A DNA stretch of 64,000 bases. Origin: a virus. Shown here one piece after another: positions 9,383-62,786 of the stretch (position 1 is the stretch's first letter; every line of letters begins with the position of its first letter). Location of the stretch: positions 1 to 64,000 of the IMG/VR virus record IMGVR_UViG_3300032272_000003; one strand, 5' to 3'. The notes below the pieces were generated by a model. That model saw only the letters and a program-made list of their open reading frames with translations. It searched no databases and was not told the DNA's origin. A program made the translations under genes and the position numbers.

Positions 9383-10816
9383 TTCAAATCTCCTTAATGT
9401 ACAGCCTGAAAATATCCAGGCTGTACATTTATTTATAACTACATAATATCATATTGACGGAATTGTCGTAAGATAGCCCCAGATAGCCACAGGTACTTCA
9501 TCCGGGGAGTTCTTCAATTTTGGATACCATGGCACCCATATCAAAAGAACTCCCTTCAGAATGGCTCCTGTTAGCCTCTGTACCAAGATACTATTGCGAT
9601 AGAATAGATGAACTGGTAAAAGGTATTGATCGGCAGACCGAGATATGCAGCGGCCATGGTGCTAAATGTTATTGCAACTACGTCGGTACCGAAGTCGATA
9701 TCATCGATTGATTTACGTCGGATCATGTCATTCTCCTGTTATGTATGATTGTAATAGTAACACATAATGATACTAATTACTACTCCATTAGTTTGATTAT
9801 CTTTACGATACGTTTACCTTTCCGGGTCAGTATGATGTGCTGACCCCGGTTGGCAGACATTGTACCACCCTCACTGAAATTAATCGAAGCACTATCAGCA
9901 CTATCATTCTTAATGACTCCATTCTTAATTAGAGCCAATCTAATATGATTTTTATATTGTGGTACTGGGGACGAATAATCCAGCACCGAACGTGTATATT
10001 CCATTGACATCTTGAAAGTGCTGAGCTTACCCTTCTCATCCATTTCCAGCAGCAGAAACTTACTATCCATACTGAGCTTGGCGTAGATATTTAGGTCTCT
10101 ACCGAACTGCCATGAACGATAGAGACCTTTGAGTTTGCTAAAACCGAACATCATACACTTCGAGTGTATAATCACCCTTAGCAGTGAACTCATGTACCCC
10201 GGCACGGCAAGCAATGCCAATGTTGACTGCTACTGTAGGGGTATCTTCAGCCAGTTCCAGTACATTCTTATGGGTAAGCTTCAGAGCCTGGGCAGCTCCA
10301 CGAACGTTGGGAAGCTGTGACATGTCCATCCGTGTGTCCACATAATTAACCAGCTTGGTCTGTAAGTCAAGGTACTGTTCGATAGGTATTTTTTGTAAGT
10401 CCATAGTGATCTCCTGTTAAAGTAATGTCCGGTCAAATGTCCGTTACATTTTTAGTGCTGTGTTGATAGCATCAACGTCGAACTCATCACAGTGTAGCAT
10501 GTATTCAAGTACAGGTACAGGATCGTCGATGCCGTGCATCGCATAGAGTTGATCATCATACACCAACATCTGGGCTATATAAAAAGTATTTTCTTCCGTA
10601 TCAGAACTATAATTGATGTAATGAAATCCGTTCTCTTTTATTCTACATTCATCAATCGCAATCGTGCAACAAACTTGTTCCAAGGAATACTTCACACCAC
10701 TTGGTGATTTGAATTCATAAAACATGATGCACCTATCAGTTAACATCTTTATCAGCATGTCGGTGGTCTGATCTAACTTGAATATGCCCATGGGGATATT
10801 ATTTAATGGTTTTGGG

Positions 10817-27171: not shown

Positions 27172-28311
27172 TTAATTGTACTCCGTTCCGCCTTTACGTA
27201 GCAAGTACTTTTCACTGACACTCTTCAGTGCGACTCGACCACATGTGTTATTATACCGCTCTTTCACTGGTTTGACAACCACTCCTTTGCGGACGTTGGT
27301 TCCTGAAATAGAATCCTTACCGTTGGTGTGCTCTGTCAGGGCTTCATTTGAGTATGGACCACGGTACAATACGGGTACTCTTTCAAGCTCCATCTCCAGA
27401 CACCAGGCGTCAAGCTCAGCGTCGTCCAGGTAACGTCTCTCACCCTTACCATTGGTAACCATGACATCGAATACCCGGAAGCCATGTTCGTTCTGTTCAC
27501 ATCCATACGTGAGGTCTTGAACCCCCTTACCATAGACTTCGCCCATGATATAGACGTTTGCCTTGTATGGAATTCTCATTTTGTATAGCTTGCTCATCAG
27601 GTTGAACTTGTCAAACGTTTTAACGTACAAGTTGCCACGGTTCTCATGTGCCAATAACTTGAGTGCCAGTCCTTTTGCCGCCAGTCCTTTACTCGATACC
27701 AAAAACTGACATGTGCCGGTACCTTCATCATCACTGGTTTCATACTGCATACTGTCAACACAGGCCGCTATCAGGAATGTGCCATGTAGTTTCTCGGTCA
27801 TGACAACCTCTTCACCGTCTTGGAGAACATCTGGAAACTTCTTGATGTTCTCAACATCATAATTCACCAGGGTGTTGATGCCGACTGCGAATGCTTCTCC
27901 AGACAAGCTGGTGGGTACCGGTGGTACGTACTTGATGATGCCCAGGTCTTCCATGACATTATCGCCATCGACCACGCTTATTTGGTCGGTCTCTTTCTCC
28001 AGCGTTAGATAGATTCCAAAGTCGTCCCGATCTAGTGGGATTACTAAACCCTGTGACAGGATGCCACGTAGCCTAATGGCCTTAACACGATTGTGTTGTT
28101 TACCAGCAAGGCGTCCTTCGAGGCCAAGTTTAGAGATAAGCCAGTCGGGAAGGACTGCTTGCTCTGGGATGTAAACTACAAGATCGCCGTTTTGGTATTT
28201 GCCCTTCTGGACAATAGCCCGGTAACCGCCTACTACAGCGAGTTCCAAGGCATCAGCATTGGGATGCTCTTCGACCTGTATTTTACAAATATTAACCTCA
28301 AATGACGCCAC
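27172..28311 (-). CDS. RNA ligase, DRB0094 family
   Basis: N-terminal HPNADALE module; EKLHGT, GEVYG, FDV, xGVVVKP, LKSVS..YL. Confidence 0.88.
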   Translation of the reverse strand: MASFEVNICKIQVEEHPNADALELAVVGGYRAIVQKGKYQNGDLVVYIPEQAVLPDWLISKLGLEGRLAGKQHNRVKAIRLRGILSQGLVIPLDRDDFGIYLTLEKETDQISVVDGDNVMEDLGIIKYVPPVPTSLSGEAFAVGINTLVNYDVENIKKFPDVLQDGEEVVMTEKLHGTFLIAACVDSMQYETSDDEGTGTCQFLVSSKGLAAKGLALKLLAHENRGNLYVKTFDKFNLMSKLYKMRIPYKANVYIMGEVYGKGVQDLTYGCEQNEHGFRVFDVMVTNGKGERRYLDDAELDAWCLEMELERVPVLYRGPYSNEALTEHTNGKDSISGTNVRKGVVVKPVKERYNNTCGRVALKSVSEKYLLRKGGTEYN

Positions 28312-36481: not shown

Positions 36482-37642
36482 TTATTCCTCATTCATCATA
36501 AAACATCCCTGTGAAAGTCCATATACAGTTTTGTAGTTCTGTGAGTGGAGGGCGAACACCTTATAATCTACATCGTGCCCTAGATACATGGACATACATA
36601 GTCCGGCCACACCCTTACAATCCATTTCAGAGAATACCTTAATGGCAAACTCCTTACGGTCCTTATCCTTGTTAGCGGCATAGAACGCCTCAACTTGAGC
36701 GATGATGTGGTTATGACGTGTAGTTATCATATCTATGGCCTTATCAATGATCTTACAGGCCACAGGATCGTCGTGGATCACCGATCTCGCATCATCAATG
36801 GTCTCGTTAATGACTGCCTCAAACAAAGCCCTAGGCGAGCTTAGGTTGAATTTTATACGATGACGTTCCAGGTACCACTTAGTCTTCAGCTTGAACATAG
36901 AATCATCTTCAAGCTGAACGACAAAGCCTTCAATCTTCTGCTTGTCATAAGCGGCATCAATCCACGCACGAGTGTCACCCTTGATATCAAATGATTTTAC
37001 TCGATAATTATTCAGAATGGAATCGTCGAGCATCATTTCATCATCGACACGGATGCCTAACATATGATCCCGAATACCAAGGACAATCAAGTGAGGCTTT
37101 TCATATCCAATAACGACCCGGTTGTCGGGTGCTACCCACTCCATGACAACTGTGTAGTCGGCATTCGTAAGTCTGTCTAGTTCAAGGCGTAGTTCTATCT
37201 GCTCTGGTTGGTCAAGCCAAACCATAGCTGCCTGGGCCTGTGTAGAGGTGAGTGAAGTCTTGGACTTCAGCATCAGCTTCTCACCGTGCCGGTAAGTAGA
37301 GATCAGAGAACCATCAGCCTTATCCCATACATTCTTGAATGATGTCAAATCCAACACCGAGTCATCGGTCAATGGATTCTCATTCAAGTTGAAGAACTTG
37401 GGGAACGGGAGGGATGCCAGACGTGCTGGTGATCCGTTGGCGTTCATTTCAAACATATGACCACGACACTCCATAGCATTGGGTAGCACGAAGTCCTGGT
37501 AACGTGCCAGGCGATATGAAAATACTCGATAAGTGATACCATCCATCACATGATCTTTAAAATAGAATGCCTCGTTGGTGTTCACCAAGTTCATCAGGTC
37601 ATTCCAAAGCTTTAGTTCAAAATCAAAATGTAATTGCATCAT
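36482..37642 (-). CDS. RNA ligase 1 (T4 RnlA-like)
   Basis: ECRG..F, KFFNLNE, KADGSL, E...P.NR.V, EGFV, KLKT.WY. Confidence 0.92.
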   Translation of the reverse strand: MMQLHFDFELKLWNDLMNLVNTNEAFYFKDHVMDGITYRVFSYRLARYQDFVLPNAMECRGHMFEMNANGSPARLASLPFPKFFNLNENPLTDDSVLDLTSFKNVWDKADGSLISTYRHGEKLMLKSKTSLTSTQAQAAMVWLDQPEQIELRLELDRLTNADYTVVMEWVAPDNRVVIGYEKPHLIVLGIRDHMLGIRVDDEMMLDDSILNNYRVKSFDIKGDTRAWIDAAYDKQKIEGFVVQLEDDSMFKLKTKWYLERHRIKFNLSSPRALFEAVINETIDDARSVIHDDPVACKIIDKAIDMITTRHNHIIAQVEAFYAANKDKDRKEFAIKVFSEMDCKGVAGLCMSMYLGHDVDYKVFALHSQNYKTVYGLSQGCFMMNEE

Positions 37643-56870: not shown

Positions 56871-57212
56871 TTACTGCCAGACATATCCACCGGCACTGTT
56901 ACGCTTACCGGCCAGGACACGCTTGATGTCGTTGGCACGGACACCCAGGACTTGATAGGCTAGTTTGGTATTTGCAAAGGCATACACTTCACCAGTGGTG
57001 AGGTTGGTGCCGACCACGTTCGCATCAGAAGGTACATCTTCAGTGAGGATGAAACGGCTTTCACCAGCAAATGGAATTGTACCATGGGCTGCTTTGTTGA
57101 TTTGGCTGACTACGATACCTGTTGCTTCGGCTGCGATTGATTGTGATGGGAAGAAAGCTACAAAATTACCGTCGAGGTCATATTGAGCTACTGGGATTCT
57201 GCGTCTTGACAT
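56871..57212 (-). CDS. NUMOD1-repeat DNA-binding protein without nuclease
   Basis: V.QYDLDG.F...F.S...A and second repeat ending SAGGYVW. Confidence 0.7.
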   Translation of the reverse strand: MSRRRIPVAQYDLDGNFVAFFPSQSIAAEATGIVVSQINKAAHGTIPFAGESRFILTEDVPSDANVVGTNLTTGEVYAFANTKLAYQVLGVRANDIKRVLAGKRNSAGGYVWQ

Positions 57213-57310
57213 AATAAATTCTCCTATGGTTAATGTCTTGATTTGTGCCGGGCGCATTTTGCTCGGCTACAACGTTAGACAATACACCAGATAAAAGTTC
57301 CATCAGAAAT

Positions 57311-57334
57311 AAAAAAAGAGGCCGAAGCCTCTTT
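57311..57334. terminator. intrinsic terminator
   Basis: AAAAGAGGC-CGAA-GCCTCTTTT. Confidence 0.85.
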
Positions 57335-57684
57335 TACATGTTCATAGCCTTAAGCCCGTACAACCCACATTCTTTGTAGAATTCAATCATCTCCAAAAGA
57401 GTTTTTGTGTCAGCTCCGTATATTGCTCCGTTTTTTAGGCGGAACAACAACTCATCAACACTCGTTTCTTCTGGTTCCCATTGACCCTCAAGTCCATAAC
57501 AAGAACAATGACTGGCATGTACTTCATAGAGTTTGTCATCTTTGACGAACAACACGAATGCTGCTCCTTCATAATGTTCAAACTCATACGATGCATACGC
57601 CATCGTTACTCTTGCTAAGTCCTGTGGTGTTATTTGGAACTCAGCTACTACATCATCAACACTATTAAAATCACCTTGGTACAT
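57334..57684 (-). CDS. conserved phage hypothetical protein
   Basis: YEG.A, SHCSCYGLEGQWEPEET motif. Confidence 0.7.
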   Translation of the reverse strand: MYQGDFNSVDDVVAEFQITPQDLARVTMAYASYEFEHYEGAAFVLFVKDDKLYEVHASHCSCYGLEGQWEPEETSVDELLFRLKNGAIYGADTKTLLEMIEFYKECGLYGLKAMNM

Positions 57685-57771: not shown

Positions 57772-57844
57772 TGGCCCGCCACCAGGGAATCGAACCCCGC
57801 ACAGCGAAGTTTGGAATCTCGCTTGGTACCCAAGACCGTAGCGG
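57772..57844 (-). tRNA. tRNA-Trp(CCA), atypical D-arm
   Basis: TT-CCA-AA loop, GTTCGATTC T-loop, encoded CCA. Confidence 0.7.
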
Positions 57845-58290: not shown

Positions 58291-58363
58291 TGGAGCGGAT
58301 AGAGGGATTCGAACCCTCACTACACGGTTTGGAAGACCGGCGACTCACCTCAAGCTTATCCGC
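58291..58363 (-). tRNA. tRNA-Gly(TCC)
   Basis: CT-TCC-AA loop, GCGGATA/TATCCGC acceptor, TCCA end. Confidence 0.85.
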
Positions 58364-58369
58364 ATTGTT

Positions 58370-58445
58370 TGGTACCCGGAGTTGGTATCGAACCAACCAC
58401 CTCACCCTTATCAGGGGTGCGCTCTACCATCTGAGCTATCCGGGT
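58370..58445 (-). tRNA. tRNA-Ile(GAT)
   Basis: Canonical cloverleaf, CT-GAT-AA. Confidence 0.95.
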
Positions 58446-58446
58446 G

Positions 58447-58520
58447 CACCCTTGGCAGGAGTCGAACCCGCGAATGGGAGGATAGAAGCCTCCTGCCTTA
58501 GTCCACTTGGCGACAAGGGT
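58447..58520 (-). tRNA. tRNA-Arg(TCT)
   Basis: GGAGG-CTTCTAT-CCTCC; CCA not encoded. Confidence 0.88.
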
Positions 58521-58525
58521 ATTTA

Positions 58526-58602
58526 TGGTGGTAATGGTTGGAATCGAACCAACGACCTTCTGGGCTTCACGCAGACACTCTTCCGACCTGAGTTACATTA
58601 CC
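58526..58602 (-). tRNA. tRNA-Phe(GAA)
   Basis: GT-GAA-GC loop, ACCA end. Confidence 0.85.
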
Positions 58603-58608
58603 TTAATT

Positions 58609-58683
58609 TGGTGCCCAATCCACGAATCGAACGTGATTCTGCGGGTTACAAATCCGCTGCATCGCCAGCAATGCTTATCGGGC
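58609..58683 (-). tRNA. tRNA-Thr(TGT)
   Basis: TT-TGT-AA loop. Confidence 0.88.
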
Positions 58684-58760
58684 TGGCACCCTTGGAGAGA
58701 CTTGAACTCCCGACAACTCTGCTTCGTAGGCAGATGCTCTTCCAACTGAGCTACAAGGGT
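58684..58760 (-). tRNA. tRNA-Arg(ACG)
   Basis: CT-ACG-AA loop. Confidence 0.93.
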
Positions 58761-58767
58761 ATAAATT

Positions 58768-58842
58768 TGGGGTGACCACGGGTATCGAACCCTGTCTGAG
58801 ATATTCACAGTATCTCGTGCTAACCATTACACTATAATCACC
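58768..58842 (-). tRNA. tRNA-His(GTG)
   Basis: CT-GTG-AA loop, G-1:C73. Confidence 0.92.
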
Positions 58843-58854
58843 ACACTACTAATG

Positions 58855-58929
58855 CATCACTGACGGGACTCGAACCCGCATCTGCCAGATTGAAAGTCTG
58901 GTGTTCTATTCCAATTAAACTACAGTGAT
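58855..58929 (-). tRNA. tRNA-Glu(TTC)
   Basis: CT-TTC-AA loop; CCA not encoded. Confidence 0.88.
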
Positions 58930-58933
58930 AAAT

Positions 58934-59011
58934 TGGCTGGTAGAGTCGGACTCGAACCGACCTCATTCTCCGTTAACAGCGGAGCGCACTCGCCTGGAAC
59001 GCTATCTACCA
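58934..59011 (-). tRNA. tRNA-Asn(GTT)
   Basis: CT-GTT-AA loop, GCCA end. Confidence 0.88.
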
Positions 59012-59151
59012 ATAAATCTTCAAGTGAGTATTCCTATTTAGAAGACTTCGCCCTCACTTACGGCGTCTTTATCTATTTGGGAGCTGGGCACCACCCCCAG
59101 CAACTCCCGGCTAAACGCCAGGTCGGTTATCTTACCATACATCCCAAATCT

Positions 59152-59226
59152 TGGTGGGCCTGGGGAGTTTCGAAATCCCGACCCAGCGATTATGAGTCGC
59201 TTGCTCTGCCTCTGAGCTACAGGCCC
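59152..59226 (-). tRNA. tRNA-Ile2(CAT), lysidine type
   Basis: AGCGA-CTCATAA-TCGCT arm resembling bacterial Ile2. Confidence 0.8.
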
Positions 59227-59229
59227 AAT

Positions 59230-59418
59230 TGGTAGCGAACCTTGGTCATGACCCAAGCCTCCCAGCTAATGAGCCGGTGAGTTAATTCGCATCAATACGG
59301 CGAGGGGAACGTGGTTATTAATATTACCAGATACACCCTCTAAATTCGTTGGACTTATGGGATTGCCCTGCCATCGTTGTTTAGTGTAGCAGCCAAATTA
59401 TGAGTCTCGCTATTCGCT
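59230..59418 (-). ncRNA. extended tRNA-like RNA (189 nt)
   Basis: Acceptor AGCGAAT/GTTCGCT + ACCA, T-like arm CTTGG-GTCATGA-CCAAG, large insert; own promoter at 59437-59465. Confidence 0.65.
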
Positions 59419-59468
59419 ACACTTCAACTTAGATACATCTTCTCATATTCAGTTCAGTGTGTCAACCA

Positions 59469-59678
59469 CTAAATGTTTTTGTATATCGTGTTCTCAATCT
59501 GCCTCAGAGCGGTTTTCAAGCCATGTCTTGACATTCTACCTATTATACTATAAACAGTATCATCAGGTTCTTCACCATACATAGTAACAAAGAAATCTCT
59601 TTGATTGTCGGTGACCAATTCAATTAGTTCCGCCGCCTTCTCTCTCAAGATAACGGTGCTCATCTCTTCAGTTGTCAT
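59469..59678 (-). CDS. hypothetical protein within the tRNA cluster
   Basis: 69-aa ORF. Confidence 0.55.
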   Translation of the reverse strand: MTTEEMSTVILREKAAELIELVTDNQRDFFVTMYGEEPDDTVYSIIGRMSRHGLKTALRQIENTIYKNI

Positions 59679-59682
59679 AATT

Positions 59683-59766
59683 TGGTGCCCCAGGAGAGAT
59701 TCGAACTCTCAATCCTCTCGGCGCTGGTTTCTAAAACCAGTGTGTATACCGTTCCACCACCAGGGC
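59683..59766 (-). tRNA. tRNA-Leu(TAG)
   Basis: TT-TAG-AA loop, long variable arm. Confidence 0.92.
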
Positions 59767-59772
59767 ATTGTT

Positions 59773-59848
59773 TGGTAGCGAGTGTGTGAATCGAACACAC
59801 CTAAAGTGGAATATGAACCCACCGAGTTCACCAGAACTCTAACTCGCC
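59773..59848 (-). tRNA. tRNA-Met(CAT)
   Basis: GTGGG-TTCATAT-TCCAC; G1:U72. Confidence 0.85.
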
Positions 59849-59854
59849 ATAATT

Positions 59855-59929
59855 TGGTAGGACTGGAGAATTTCGAAATCTCGACTTGCCGGGTAAGAGC
59901 CGGGTGCTCTGCCTCTGAGCTACAATCCT
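59855..59929 (-). tRNA. tRNA-Lys(CTT)
   Basis: CT-CTT-AC loop. Confidence 0.88.
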
Positions 59930-59946
59930 ATAATCTATAATCTATT

Positions 59947-60024
59947 TGGTGGGACCGGAGAGATTTGAACTCTCGCGTTACCGGTTAAAAGCCGGATGCT
60001 CTGGCCAGACTGAGCTACGGTCCC
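59947..60024 (-). tRNA. tRNA-Lys(TTT)
   Basis: CT-TTT-AA loop. Confidence 0.92.
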
Positions 60025-60025
60025 T

Positions 60026-60099
60026 TGGAGATGAAGAGTGGAATCGAACCACCTTAAGTGGGTTTGCAATCCACCACATAACCATTCTGACACTTCACC
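60026..60099 (-). tRNA. tRNA-Cys(GCA)
   Basis: TT-GCA-AA loop, U73. Confidence 0.9.
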
Positions 60100-60108
60100 A
60101 CACTAAAT

Positions 60109-60198
60109 TGGAGGTAGGTGTGAGATTCGAACTCACGGAACGCTTTCACGTCCATCTAGTTAGCAACCAGGCACCTTAAACCACTCAGCCAACCTACC
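60109..60198 (-). tRNA. tRNA-Ser(GCT)
   Basis: TT-GCT-AA loop, long variable arm. Confidence 0.9.
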
Positions 60199-60204
60199 AC
60201 AAAT

Positions 60205-60279
60205 TGGTACTCAGGGGGAATTTCGAAATCCCGACCCTTGCCTTGTAAAAGCACTGCTCTGCCTCTGAGCTACCCGAGT
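60205..60279 (-). tRNA. tRNA-Val(TAC)
   Basis: TT-TAC-AA loop. Confidence 0.88.
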
Positions 60280-60285
60280 AAAAAT

Positions 60286-60369
60286 TGGTACTCCGGGTGG
60301 GTTTCGAACCCACATGGCCGAAGCCGGGGGATTTTAAGTCCCCTGTGTATCCCATTCCACCACCGGAGC
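60286..60369 (-). tRNA. tRNA-Leu(TAA)
   Basis: CT-TAA-AA loop, long variable arm. Confidence 0.92.
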
Positions 60370-60379
60370 ATGGGGGATT

Positions 60380-60455
60380 TGGCGCTGTGTATGGGGATTG
60401 AACCCATCGATTCTTCCGTGACAGGGAAGCCCGTTCGCCAGCTCGGTCACACAGC
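60380..60455 (-). tRNA. tRNA-Asp(GTC)
   Basis: CT-GTC-AC loop, G73. Confidence 0.88.
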
Positions 60456-60461
60456 ATTGTT

Positions 60462-60534
60462 TGGTGGAGCTATAGAGAATCGAACTCTACCCAGTCACTT
60501 GCAAGGCGTCCGGTGATACCCATATACTAGCCCC
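60462..60534 (-). tRNA. tRNA-Ala(TGC), atypical D-arm
   Basis: CT-TGC-AA loop, G3:U70. Confidence 0.8.
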
Positions 60535-60539
60535 TCGTT

Positions 60540-60638
60540 TGGCGGAAGAACAGAGATTCGAACTCTGACGACTACTTACGTAGACCTTCGGTTTTCAAGA
60601 CCGCTGCCGCTACCCAGGTTCTTTCGGCTTACTCTTCC
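60540..60638 (-). tRNA. tRNA-Ser(TGA), enlarged D-loop
   Basis: CT-TGA-AA loop, long variable arm. Confidence 0.85.
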
Positions 60639-60643
60639 TAAAT

Positions 60644-60721
60644 TGGTCTGCGTGGTTGGATTTGAACCAACGGCTTCTCGGTTCCAAACCGAGAACTCTG
60701 ACCAGACTGAGCTACACACAG
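60644..60721 (-). tRNA. tRNA-Pro(TGG)
   Basis: TT-TGG-AA loop, C1:G72. Confidence 0.93.
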
Positions 60722-60727
60722 ATTGTT

Positions 60728-60811
60728 TGGTGGTTCGAGTACGAGTTGAACGTACACAGCCATGGGCGTCCGGGTTACAACCGGGTGAACTCGCCAATGT
60801 TCAGTCGAACC
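60728..60811 (-). tRNA. tRNA-Tyr(GTA)
   Basis: TT-GTA-AC loop, long variable arm. Confidence 0.88.
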
Positions 60812-60840
60812 AATATTCTTTGTCAACCTTTGAGACAATC

Positions 60841-60869
60841 ATTGTAAACCTTAGTTCCAACATTGTCAA
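60841..60869 (-). promoter_or_regulatory. sigma70 promoter of the tRNA operon
   Basis: TTGACA-17-TACAAT. Confidence 0.85.
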
Positions 60870-60966
60870 CCTTAAGTTTGCCTGTTCGTCCCCTGCTGAG
60901 GGCAGAATGCCCTACATAGCCCATCGACAACAGCCCTTCTCAATCCTTGCGATTGAGTCCCATATT

Positions 60967-61041
60967 TGGATCACCCGGTAGGCATCGAACCCACATTTCG
61001 AGATTCAAAGTCTCGCGTCCTACCAATTAGACGACAGGTGA
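60967..61041 (-). tRNA. tRNA-Gln(TTG)
   Basis: CT-TTG-AA loop, U1:A72. Confidence 0.92.
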
Positions 61042-61601: not shown

Positions 61602-62786
61602 TTAACCGATACCAAGTACCAGGTTAGCCACGTTGGCTCTGCGATAGAAATCACCTGAGTTGCCTAATGAATCGGCAGGGTTGGTAAAGTCTGTCAGGGC
61701 ATAACGAGTCATTAAGCCCATGCGAGGGTTGAAGCTGTCAGCATCTACAATCACACCAGAACTCATAAGAGGAATGTATGGGCTGTAAATAAGGCCAGTA
61801 TCAAGCTCACTAGCACCCTTGTAACCAACTAACAGTTTGTTAGTAGTAGCATGGATGTCTACATAGACACGCATTGATCCGTTAAGGACACCAGCGAACA
61901 GTGTAGAGCTTGGGTTCAGGTCAGGACTTGCCGTAGCAGGAACGAATGAACCGTTGTTTGCATGACGCAATGCTATCAGAACGTTAGGGCTGACAACCAT
62001 CCAGTTTGCACCGGAACGTTTAGTGGCTACTGCGATTTGGTTTGACAGTTCACTGATTGCAATAACCAGGGCTGTAAACTTCTCAGAAGCATAACGACCA
62101 TCGGCGTCGGCAAAGTCAAATACACTTACTGCACCAGCTAGGGTTTCTAGTCGGCCCAGAAGCTCTTTGTCAAGCTCACGAACGATTTCGTCAGACACGA
62201 TTGAAACAAGTTCGTCTTCAAGAATAATACCATGTAGGCTGGCAGCGTCTTGCTGTGCTTCGATGGTCCACTTGGCTTGGAGCTTGCGGCTCTTTGCTTC
62301 AATGGTCTTTTTGACGATTTCAAGGTTCATTTCCTGTCCACCGTTGTTTTCCAAGTGACGGGTAAACTCGTCTGGAAGGGTGAAGGCGTCTACAGTGGTG
62401 TAGTCGGCTTCGGCATTCTGTAAGAAGGTGTACTTCTCATAGAGGTTTACTGCGTTTGCTTCATCATCAGCAGTTGGACCAGTTGCAACAGTGTTACCGT
62501 AACGTGCTTTCAGGGCACGGACGATACCGACTGGAGCGTTCATTGGCTGTACACCAACAAGTTCCATTGCGATAAGGGCAGGGGCAGCACGACGGATGAT
62601 TGGCATTACTACCTTATCAAACTTCGCAATACTATCATTACTGATTGCTGTAAATGAACCAGGAAAAGCTTCAGCAAGATGCTCTTTCTGAATGTCCAGC
62701 ATGGTTTCAGTAATGGTGCGACGAGAACCGTCCAATCCTTCGAGGATTGCAGCCTTCTCTTCTAACCATAAATTTTGATCACTCAT
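61602..62786 (-). CDS. major capsid protein (gp23-like)
   Basis: GVQPM..P.G, AKSRKL.A.WT.E..QD, VGYKG..E.D.G..YSPYIPL, F.P.MG.MTRY. Confidence 0.95.
   Translation of the reverse strand: MSDQNLWLEEKAAILEGLDGSRRTITETMLDIQKEHLAEAFPGSFTAISNDSIAKFDKVVMPIIRRAAPALIAMELVGVQPMNAPVGIVRALKARYGNTVATGPTADDEANAVNLYEKYTFLQNAEADYTTVDAFTLPDEFTRHLENNGGQEMNLEIVKKTIEAKSRKLQAKWTIEAQQDAASLHGIILEDELVSIVSDEIVRELDKELLGRLETLAGAVSVFDFADADGRYASEKFTALVIAISELSNQIAVATKRSGANWMVVSPNVLIALRHANNGSFVPATASPDLNPSSTLFAGVLNGSMRVYVDIHATTNKLLVGYKGASELDTGLIYSPYIPLMSSGVIVDADSFNPRMGLMTRYALTDFTNPADSLGNSGDFYRRANVANLVLGIG

Follow-up and report, generated by a model that had tools for sequence, protein, structure and literature searches.

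A probable non-decoding small RNA gene on a tRNA frame in the tRNA cluster of an uncultured T4-type phage

The window analysed here comprises 64,000 nucleotides (nt), the first 64 kb of the 147.7-kb viral contig IMGVR_UViG_3300032272_000003 of IMG/VR (43% complete by estimate), and the element studied is a 189-nt stretch of it at 59230-59418, read on the minus strand. The source is an uncultured phage of the T4 type. Its gp23-type major capsid gene (PF07068) at 61602-62786, with a scaffold-like gene beside it, adjoins a cluster of 23 tRNA genes that ARAGORN called on the minus strand at 58291-61041, between the capsid and exonuclease genes, and 20 of these calls were confirmed by Rfam. Genes for an RNase H-like exonuclease and a Dda-like helicase are found downstream. 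The element occupies a 189-nt gap in this series, flanked by an open reading frame (ORF) of 69 amino acids (59469-59678) and by an Ile2-type tRNA(CAU) whose homologues in other phages are annotated as tRNA-Ile or tRNA-Met, and it is positioned between this gene and an initiator-like tRNA-Met. The features on which its description depends are the following.

59230-59418, minus strand: the whole tRNA-framed RNA, 189 nt, delimited by a 7-bp closing stem and an encoded CCA, found by the module scan and given as an exact interval by relaxed ARAGORN.
59412-59418, minus strand: acceptor 5' strand, positions 1-7, pairing with 59240-59234.
59230-59240, minus strand: acceptor 3' strand (59240-59234), discriminator A (59233) and encoded CCA (59232-59230), read from the sequence.
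59241-59257, minus strand: T-arm-like hairpin with a 5-bp stem and a 7-nt non-canonical loop (59252-59246); ensemble p > 0.7, loop unpaired 0.97.
59152-59226, minus strand: Ile2-type tRNA(CAU), the downstream neighbour, called by ARAGORN and Rfam.
59773-59848, minus strand: initiator-like tRNA-Met, the probable parent or paralogue of the element, from ARAGORN and the comparison of acceptors.

The two ends of the element form a tRNA-type minihelix. A preliminary description of this DNA had proposed a tRNA-like RNA gene with a 7-bp acceptor stem, a discriminator A, an encoded CCA, a T-arm-sized hairpin with a non-canonical loop and a large non-tRNA interior, and all of this is supported. The acceptor stem (59418-59412 with 59240-59234) has 7 bp, one of them a U.G pair, with pair probabilities of 0.79-0.95 in the ensemble of the 189-mer, and its third pair is C3:G70. 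As had also been noticed, the 3' end is common with that of tRNA-Met, the last 9 nt being identical. The T-like hairpin (59257-59241) directly abuts the 3' acceptor strand; its stem has G53:C61, and its loop contains a 6-nt palindrome and has G and U at positions 54 and 58, against a canonical loop in every called tRNA of the cluster. All 12 acceptor and T-stem pairs and the CCA are intact, while the T-loop differs from the canonical loops of the cluster at five of seven positions; perfect stems with non-canonical loops suggest selection on the helices rather than on decoding. The tRNA-Ile2 gene, said to follow directly, does so, starting 3 nt past the CCA end of the element, and the same 3-nt spacing is kept throughout the tRNAs of the cluster. 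We scanned the window for modules consisting of a 7-bp stem (at most one G.U pair), an adjacent hairpin of 5 bp with a 7-nt loop, and NCCA, with the stem strands 60-400 nt apart. The scan returned most of the called tRNAs, the element and two more uncalled tRNA-like genes, all of them within or beside the tRNA cluster, and one other place. As the chance rate of the module is 0.6 per 128 kb (20 shuffled windows), its presence with 3-nt spacing to the next tRNA is far beyond chance. Regarding its nature, the element on balance probably encodes a small RNA that does not decode, is framed like a tRNA and is released by RNase P and 3' trimming. For RNase P, stacked acceptor and T stems followed by a 3' RCCA are substrate enough, and the intact acceptor/T minihelix and CCA of the element satisfy this rule, which is consistent with such an excision.

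Between the acceptor 5' strand and the T-type arm lie about 150 nt of other hairpins, which are given here together with the parts of a competing fold (MFE, minimum free energy structure).

59391-59411, minus strand: hairpin H1, whose 7-bp stem contains one G.G mismatch and whose 7-nt loop (59404-59398) is CUCAUAA; ensemble p about 0.3 in the mature form.
59351-59368, minus strand: the second CAU hairpin of the preliminary description, a 4-bp stem with a 10-nt loop; in the MFE, p < 0.4 in the ensemble.
59302-59340, minus strand: central long hairpin, in the MFE and centroid structures; outer and inner pairs p > 0.7.
59259-59281, minus strand: hairpin H4, 9 bp with one bulge and a CAUU tetraloop (59271-59268); p > 0.7, loop unpaired p = 1.0.
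59383-59423, minus strand: competing 5' hairpin that encloses H1, its stem having 8 bp (59423-59416 with 59390-59383); in the MFE with at least 5 nt of leader.
59285-59290, minus strand: internal repeat, a second copy of the hexamer of the acceptor 5' strand, paired in the MFE of every precursor with a leader.

The central hairpin was confirmed from the sequence at 59340-59302, and H4 ends 1 nt ahead of the T-like arm. The three anticodon-like CAU hairpins that had been described did not hold up in that form: H1 carries a mismatch and a low pairing probability, the second hairpin is not robust and the third CAU is in a tetraloop. The competing 5' hairpin consumes leader bases together with the first three acceptor bases, and the internal repeat (59290-59285) pairs with the 3' acceptor strand, forming a miniature tRNA-like module of 61 nt without a D-arm (59290-59230). 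These two structures could represent a bipartite, bistable unit, a CAU-capped 5' hairpin plus the mini module, in which the choice of fold would govern the place or the occurrence of cutting by RNase P, and through it the maturation of downstream tRNAs. The leader-containing precursor is predicted to favour this fold by 3.3-5.8 kcal/mol, and the hexamer repeat provides six pairs with the 3' strand. However, the basis of this alternative is thermodynamic prediction, a hexamer repeat within 189 nt is expected with an estimated probability of about 0.05, and the short closure, with 11 stacked pairs and a CCA off by one base, would by the substrate rules be a poorer RNase P substrate, so that we consider the bistable unit distinctly improbable. 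The long closure has the canonical 12 stacked pairs with the CCA in the correct register, and for these reasons the 189-nt closure is preferred as the processed form.

Comparison with known RNA families was carried out with the Rfam and ARAGORN searches that the preliminary description had proposed. No match of the element to Rfam 15 was found, either at gathering thresholds or at E <= 10 over 58950-59720, the latter search covering the tRNA, tmRNA, group I intron and Y RNA models, and ARAGORN at default settings made no call. A canonical tRNA (RF00005) was rejected: the acceptor stem, the discriminator and the CCA agree with it, and the D-arm, the placement of the anticodon arm, the T-loop and detection by the model do not. 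No D-arm is present, the arm ahead of the T-arm has 9 bp and ends in a tetraloop, and no arm of 5 bp with a 7-nt loop is found at the canonical distance from the T-arm. The element shares with the tRNA-Met and tRNA-Ile2 of its own cluster a near-Met acceptor and discriminator, an identical anticodon-loop heptamer, the encoded CCA and the spacing to its neighbour. In contrast to them, it is without a D-arm and without the conserved T54 and A58, has approximately 115-130 extra nt, and carries its anticodon-type hairpin against the acceptor stem and not ahead of the variable loop. The tRNA-like domain of tmRNA resembles it in combining an acceptor stem and a T-arm with a long interior and no D-arm or decoding anticodon. 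Nevertheless, tmRNA (RF00023 and relatives) was rejected as well, as the earlier remark on the missing G3:U70 had anticipated: the C3:G70 pair of the element, where tmRNA has G3:U70, excludes alanine identity, ARAGORN in tmRNA mode (default) and the Rfam models gave nothing, the T-loop is non-canonical, no tag reading frame was found in the element (ARAGORN default settings), and the length is 189 nt. A tmRNA call obtained with relaxed settings is a permuted model that overruns into tRNA-Ile2 and the gap downstream, and is not the element itself.

The possibility of a familiar RNA in disguise, be it a tRNA with an intron, a small tmRNA or a tRNA mimic of the Y RNA type, draws on ARAGORN's intron mode, which at an 80% threshold calls the exact interval of the element as a 90-nt tRNA with a 99-nt insert. 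This relaxed cloverleaf fails the default threshold, its D-arm is poor, and its anticodon stem, all A/U and spliced across the insert, is not credible. Group I introns in bacterial tRNAs measure about 200 nt or more, far longer than this insert; removal of a single segment completes no other cloverleaf, and no intron family matched at E <= 10. The same search gave no tmRNA, YrlA or other Rfam match, so a Y RNA or YrlA tRNA mimic was also rejected, with no search for a Ro60 gene made. Taking into account the C3:G70 pair and the missing tag frame too, we judge a disguised member of these families to be highly improbable.

A different kind of comparison is offered by phage T4, whose record annotates rnaC (species 1 RNA, 139 nt) and rnaD (species 2 RNA), small stable RNAs at the end of the tRNA cluster. 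RNAC and RNAD are real T4 RNAs whose roles remain unknown, and stable tRNA-shaped RNAs, recognised in T4-type tRNA clusters since the 1970s, are without a known function (PMC3014915, PMC9697503). In the fold of rnaC, which is not in Rfam, a closing stem is combined with a long hairpin, with another of 10 bp that stops 1 nt short of the T-arm, and with the T-arm (z = -4.57), and in five members of its family this frame is conserved and covarying (19 pairs with compensatory changes) and the middle is variable. Both the element and rnaC are inside a T4-type tRNA cluster, and in both an acceptor-like stem joins the two ends and stacks on the T-arm, a hairpin of 9-10 bp (H4 in the element, the 10-bp hairpin in rnaC) stands 1 nt ahead of the T-arm, and a large structured insert replaces the D-arm and the anticodon arm; neither can decode. 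On the other hand, there is no sequence similarity between the two; the element has a perfect 7-bp stem and an encoded CCA, while the stem of rnaC contains two U.U mismatches and its CCA is not encoded; and the element is 50 nt longer, has CAU loops including one true anticodon-type loop, and has a much less stable fold (z of -1.24 versus -4.57). The element thus resembles RNAC in architecture and is not a member of the rnaC sequence family. Two side observations belong here. In the rnaC homologue of Enterobacter phage IME523 the canonical T-loop is exchanged for a palindromic CAUG-containing loop and the stem is kept, a parallel to the T-like loop of the element. Also, on the other side of tRNA-Ile2, a second non-tRNA gap (59012-59151, minus strand; fold z-score -3.7) contains a cloverleaf whose stems are intact and whose loops are non-canonical; it lacks CCA, and two hairpins come after it. 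Together with the element it is reminiscent of the adjacent RNAC/RNAD pair of T4.

Searches for relatives of the element gave the following results. Neither the element alone nor the element with its flanks had a homologue by blastn in 50,697 phage records, and blastn of the whole cluster returned scattered tRNA matches only, KVP40 being the best. Exact patterns in viral contigs (the 3' end of the element, tRNA-Ile2, and the T-arm with a free acceptor) found no homologue, and the T-arm of the element did not recur in 2.9 million viral contigs, with the exception of one chance match in coding sequence. In metagenome contigs the junction pattern had no match, and a 24-mer of tRNA-Ile2 found unrelated tRNAs only. 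A tRNA ahead of tRNA-Ile2 was also sought in phages whose alignment reached the end of the element, and was rejected, as coding sequences are found there instead. The element is an orphan for now, which weakens any functional claim more than anything else. Relatives whose capsid or RNase H proteins are 51-60% identical share the gene order (gp23, then small ORFs, then RNase H) and have no tRNA cluster at the gp23-RNase H position; the cluster is therefore lineage-specific at this position. The gp23-RNase H junction is occupied in relatives by GIY-YIG or DUF723 genes, which suggests a recombination hotspot.

Regarding the origin of the element, its acceptor strands match those of the tRNA-Met at 59773-59848 at 10 of 14 positions, every other tRNA reaching at most 7 of 14, and the discriminator is identical. 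The pair 6:67 is altered on both sides (A:U in the element against G:C in the tRNA-Met), a double compensatory change. The 5' strand of H1 is identical over its whole length to an anticodon-stem strand of a Trp-like tRNA, a 10-mer of H1 is identical to part of the anticodon arm of tRNA-Ile2, and its loop heptamer is the Met/Ile2 anticodon loop. We regard the tRNA parentage of the element as established, together with its sequence anatomy, the statistical support for that anatomy and its place outside the known families; from the sequence comparison, its source is most likely a CAU tRNA of its own cluster, with an acceptor stem paralogous to that of the tRNA-Met. G1.U72, A11:U24 and G29-G31 are hallmarks of bacterial initiator tRNAs. 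All of these can be read in the tRNA-Met sequence, and this sole canonical tRNA-Met of the cluster looks like an initiator. A canonical elongator tRNA-Met is not present among the cluster tRNAs, which include the initiator-like tRNA-Met and tRNA-Ile2. Two other candidate origins were set aside: insertion of a mobile repeat, as no second copy was found within the 147.7-kb contig, and fusion of two tRNA genes, as the middle of the element shows only weak local similarity to a T-arm.

The same set of tRNAs could indicate a relic in decay: the element would descend from a CAU tRNA gene, possibly that of the elongator tRNA-Met now missing, or from two fused tRNA fragments, would have been disrupted by an insertion or a rearrangement, and would at most yield a functionless processed spacer. 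Such an origin is consistent with a mosaic of pieces resembling several cluster tRNAs and an acceptor hexamer duplicated internally, with the ordinary stability of the overall fold and the weakness of two of the hairpins described earlier, with a recent and plastic cluster, as suggested by its absence at this place from the relatives of 51-60% identity, and with the homing-endonuclease-like genes that adjoin it. However, neutral decay should hit stems, and all 12 acceptor and T-stem pairs and the CCA are intact despite the change of the T-loop at five of seven positions. Besides, the inserted part is not repeated elsewhere in the contig, and the location of all four CAU triplets of the element in loops, as detailed below, is unlikely under random decay. 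A relic is therefore rather unlikely, while remaining a serious alternative to the gene for a non-decoding RNA.

How such a gene might be expressed depends in part on its promoter. A site of its own had been proposed, TTGACA-17-GAAGAT, and it is found on the minus strand as follows.

59437-59465, minus strand: promoter-like site with a perfect -35 (59465-59460), a 17-nt spacer and a -10 (59442-59437) with three of six matches, read from the sequence.

The -35 and the spacing agree with that proposal, but the -10 is weak, and the site is absent from the list of the consensus promoter scan. On the minus (coding) strand of the contig TTGACA occurs 82 times, versus about 36 expected, and on the plus strand 56 times. 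An own promoter for the element is plausible from these motifs. Four TTGACA copies are located within the tRNA cluster, consistent with host-type early promoters.

For the preferred reading we infer expression, processing sites and any trans-acting role along the following lines. A CAU tRNA of the cluster would have given rise to the element by keeping the acceptor/T-type minihelix and the CCA, on which recognition by RNase P and the 3'-trimming enzymes depends, and losing the D-arm and the canonical T-loop. The element would be transcribed with the tRNA operon, and perhaps from its own weak promoter too. RNase P would cut 5' of 59418 after formation of the long-range closing stem, which would compete with the leader hairpin, and 3' trimming would halt at the encoded CCA. 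The product would be a stable 189-nt RNA unable to decode, with the interior hairpins as its functional payload, as is presumed for T4 RNAC. The presence of two further non-canonical tRNA-shaped elements in the same cluster was counted in favour of a non-decoding RNA gene. Several observations weigh against it. No homologue that could show covariation or conservation was found by any route. A covariance model built from the five rnaC members, shallow in itself (effective sequence number 1.06), gives no match on 59230-59418 with filters off at E <= 10. The whole RNA is no more stable than its shuffled versions (z = -1.24). With at least 5 nt of leader, the fold in which the acceptor stem is enforced is predicted to be worse, by the 3.3-5.8 kcal/mol given above, than the local hairpin with the internal repeat. 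The 189-nt boundary is not certain, its 5' end being a predicted one.

The CAU-bearing loops are the sole hint of a role for the element. It contains four CAU triplets, all in hairpin loops of the MFE, where 12.8% of the trinucleotide windows fall. The naive chance of four out of four is about 3e-4, and it was reproduced in 0 of 159 shuffles with at least three CAU; CAU is also the only triplet type with every copy in these loops. The flanks are Y-CAU-N-A in all four. The preliminary description had reported three anticodon-like CAU loops. The CAU loops do exist, and a fourth, overlooked then, lies within the T-like loop, but only the first (59404-59398), which abuts the acceptor stem, is a 7-nt loop of the anticodon type; the third is within the tetraloop of H4 on its 9-bp stem. 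At least three near-copies of the anticodon-loop heptamer are found in approximately 0.5-1.2% of the 189-nt windows of the 64-kb stretch, and thus the CAU count alone is unexceptional.

Presenting these loops on a Met-type frame, the element could serve as a decoy that draws off anticodon nucleases directed at CAU, or could bind or titrate MetRS, TilS or formyltransferase. The determinants of Met/fMet identity include A73, G2:C71 and C3:G70, and the acceptor of the element, as read from the sequence, has all three. The four CAU in predicted loops with common flanks, one of them identical to the Met/Ile2 anticodon loop, point in the same direction, as does the T4 Rnl1-type RNA ligase encoded by the contig. 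Enterobacterial VapC toxins cleave initiator tRNA (PMC5175351), and phage tRNAs have been argued to counter tRNA-targeting defences (PMC10264068); both reports were counted for the decoy. However, the single loop with anticodon geometry sits on a hairpin with p of about 0.3, and the third CAU occupies a tetraloop. Y-CAU-N-A is a motif chosen post hoc, and four copies of it occur in 0.8-2.9% of the 189-nt windows of the contig. No homologue is available in which the CAU loops could be seen to be kept, the contig has no TilS or MetRS gene, and Rnl1 is a general trait of T4-like phages. A decoy or ligand is thus improbable. An elaboration of the same idea, the display of CAU, joins it to the fold of the leader: a Met/fMet-type frame with four Y-CAU-N-A loops would titrate a CAU-reading host factor, and RNase P would flip the closed leader hairpin into the active form. 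The factor could be a toxin that cleaves initiator tRNA, or else a modifying or charging enzyme. We put forward this display as a speculation with a small chance of being right.

Some further features of the locus and its surroundings were recorded.

59469-59678, minus strand: the 69-amino-acid ORF within the tRNA cluster, an orphan with no relative among 5.8 billion proteins; the version of the gene caller is shorter (59 amino acids).
60540-60638, minus strand: an uncalled 99-nt tRNA-like gene between tRNA-Pro and tRNA-Ala; its acceptor stem is perfect, its T-arm canonical and its variable arm long, CCA is present, the anticodon loop has UGA (Ser), and the D-loop is unusually large.
57772-57844, minus strand: an uncalled 73-nt tRNA-Trp(CCA)-like gene about 450 nt past the cluster, beyond two small ORFs, with a canonical T-arm and CCA; its D-arm is short and odd, and the anticodon stem has an A.C mismatch at its base.
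57334-57684 and 56871-57257, both minus strand: small genes beside the tRNA cluster with homing-endonuclease or HNH-like PHROG matches.
36872-37471, minus strand: RNA ligase of the T4 Rnl1 type (PF09511, 81.7 bits).
27220-27813, minus strand: RNA ligase of the Rnl2 type (PF09414, 75.5 bits).

The Ser-like gene escapes ARAGORN, and Rfam at the gathering score. If it and the Trp-like gene are counted, all 20 amino acids would be covered by the phage. The two ligases form a tRNA-repair toolkit typical of T4-like phages. In an unrelated GC-rich metagenomic contig with 26 tRNAs, at 9480-9600 on the plus strand, a tRNA 3' end (T-arm, acceptor strand and CCA) precedes the matching 5' acceptor strand by 6 nt, and that strand and its D-arm continue into non-tRNA sequence, which could represent a split, permuted or attachment-site-like arrangement.

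The analysis of this locus indicates that standard tRNA finders overlook several genes in phage tRNA islands. The element is an unrelated example of RNAC-type architecture in which the parentage, from a Met-type tRNA, and the displayed CAU loops are directly readable, and it consequently offers a concrete, testable idea of what such frames present. If true, the display of CAU would be the first functional clue for the RNAC-type RNAs of T4-type phages.

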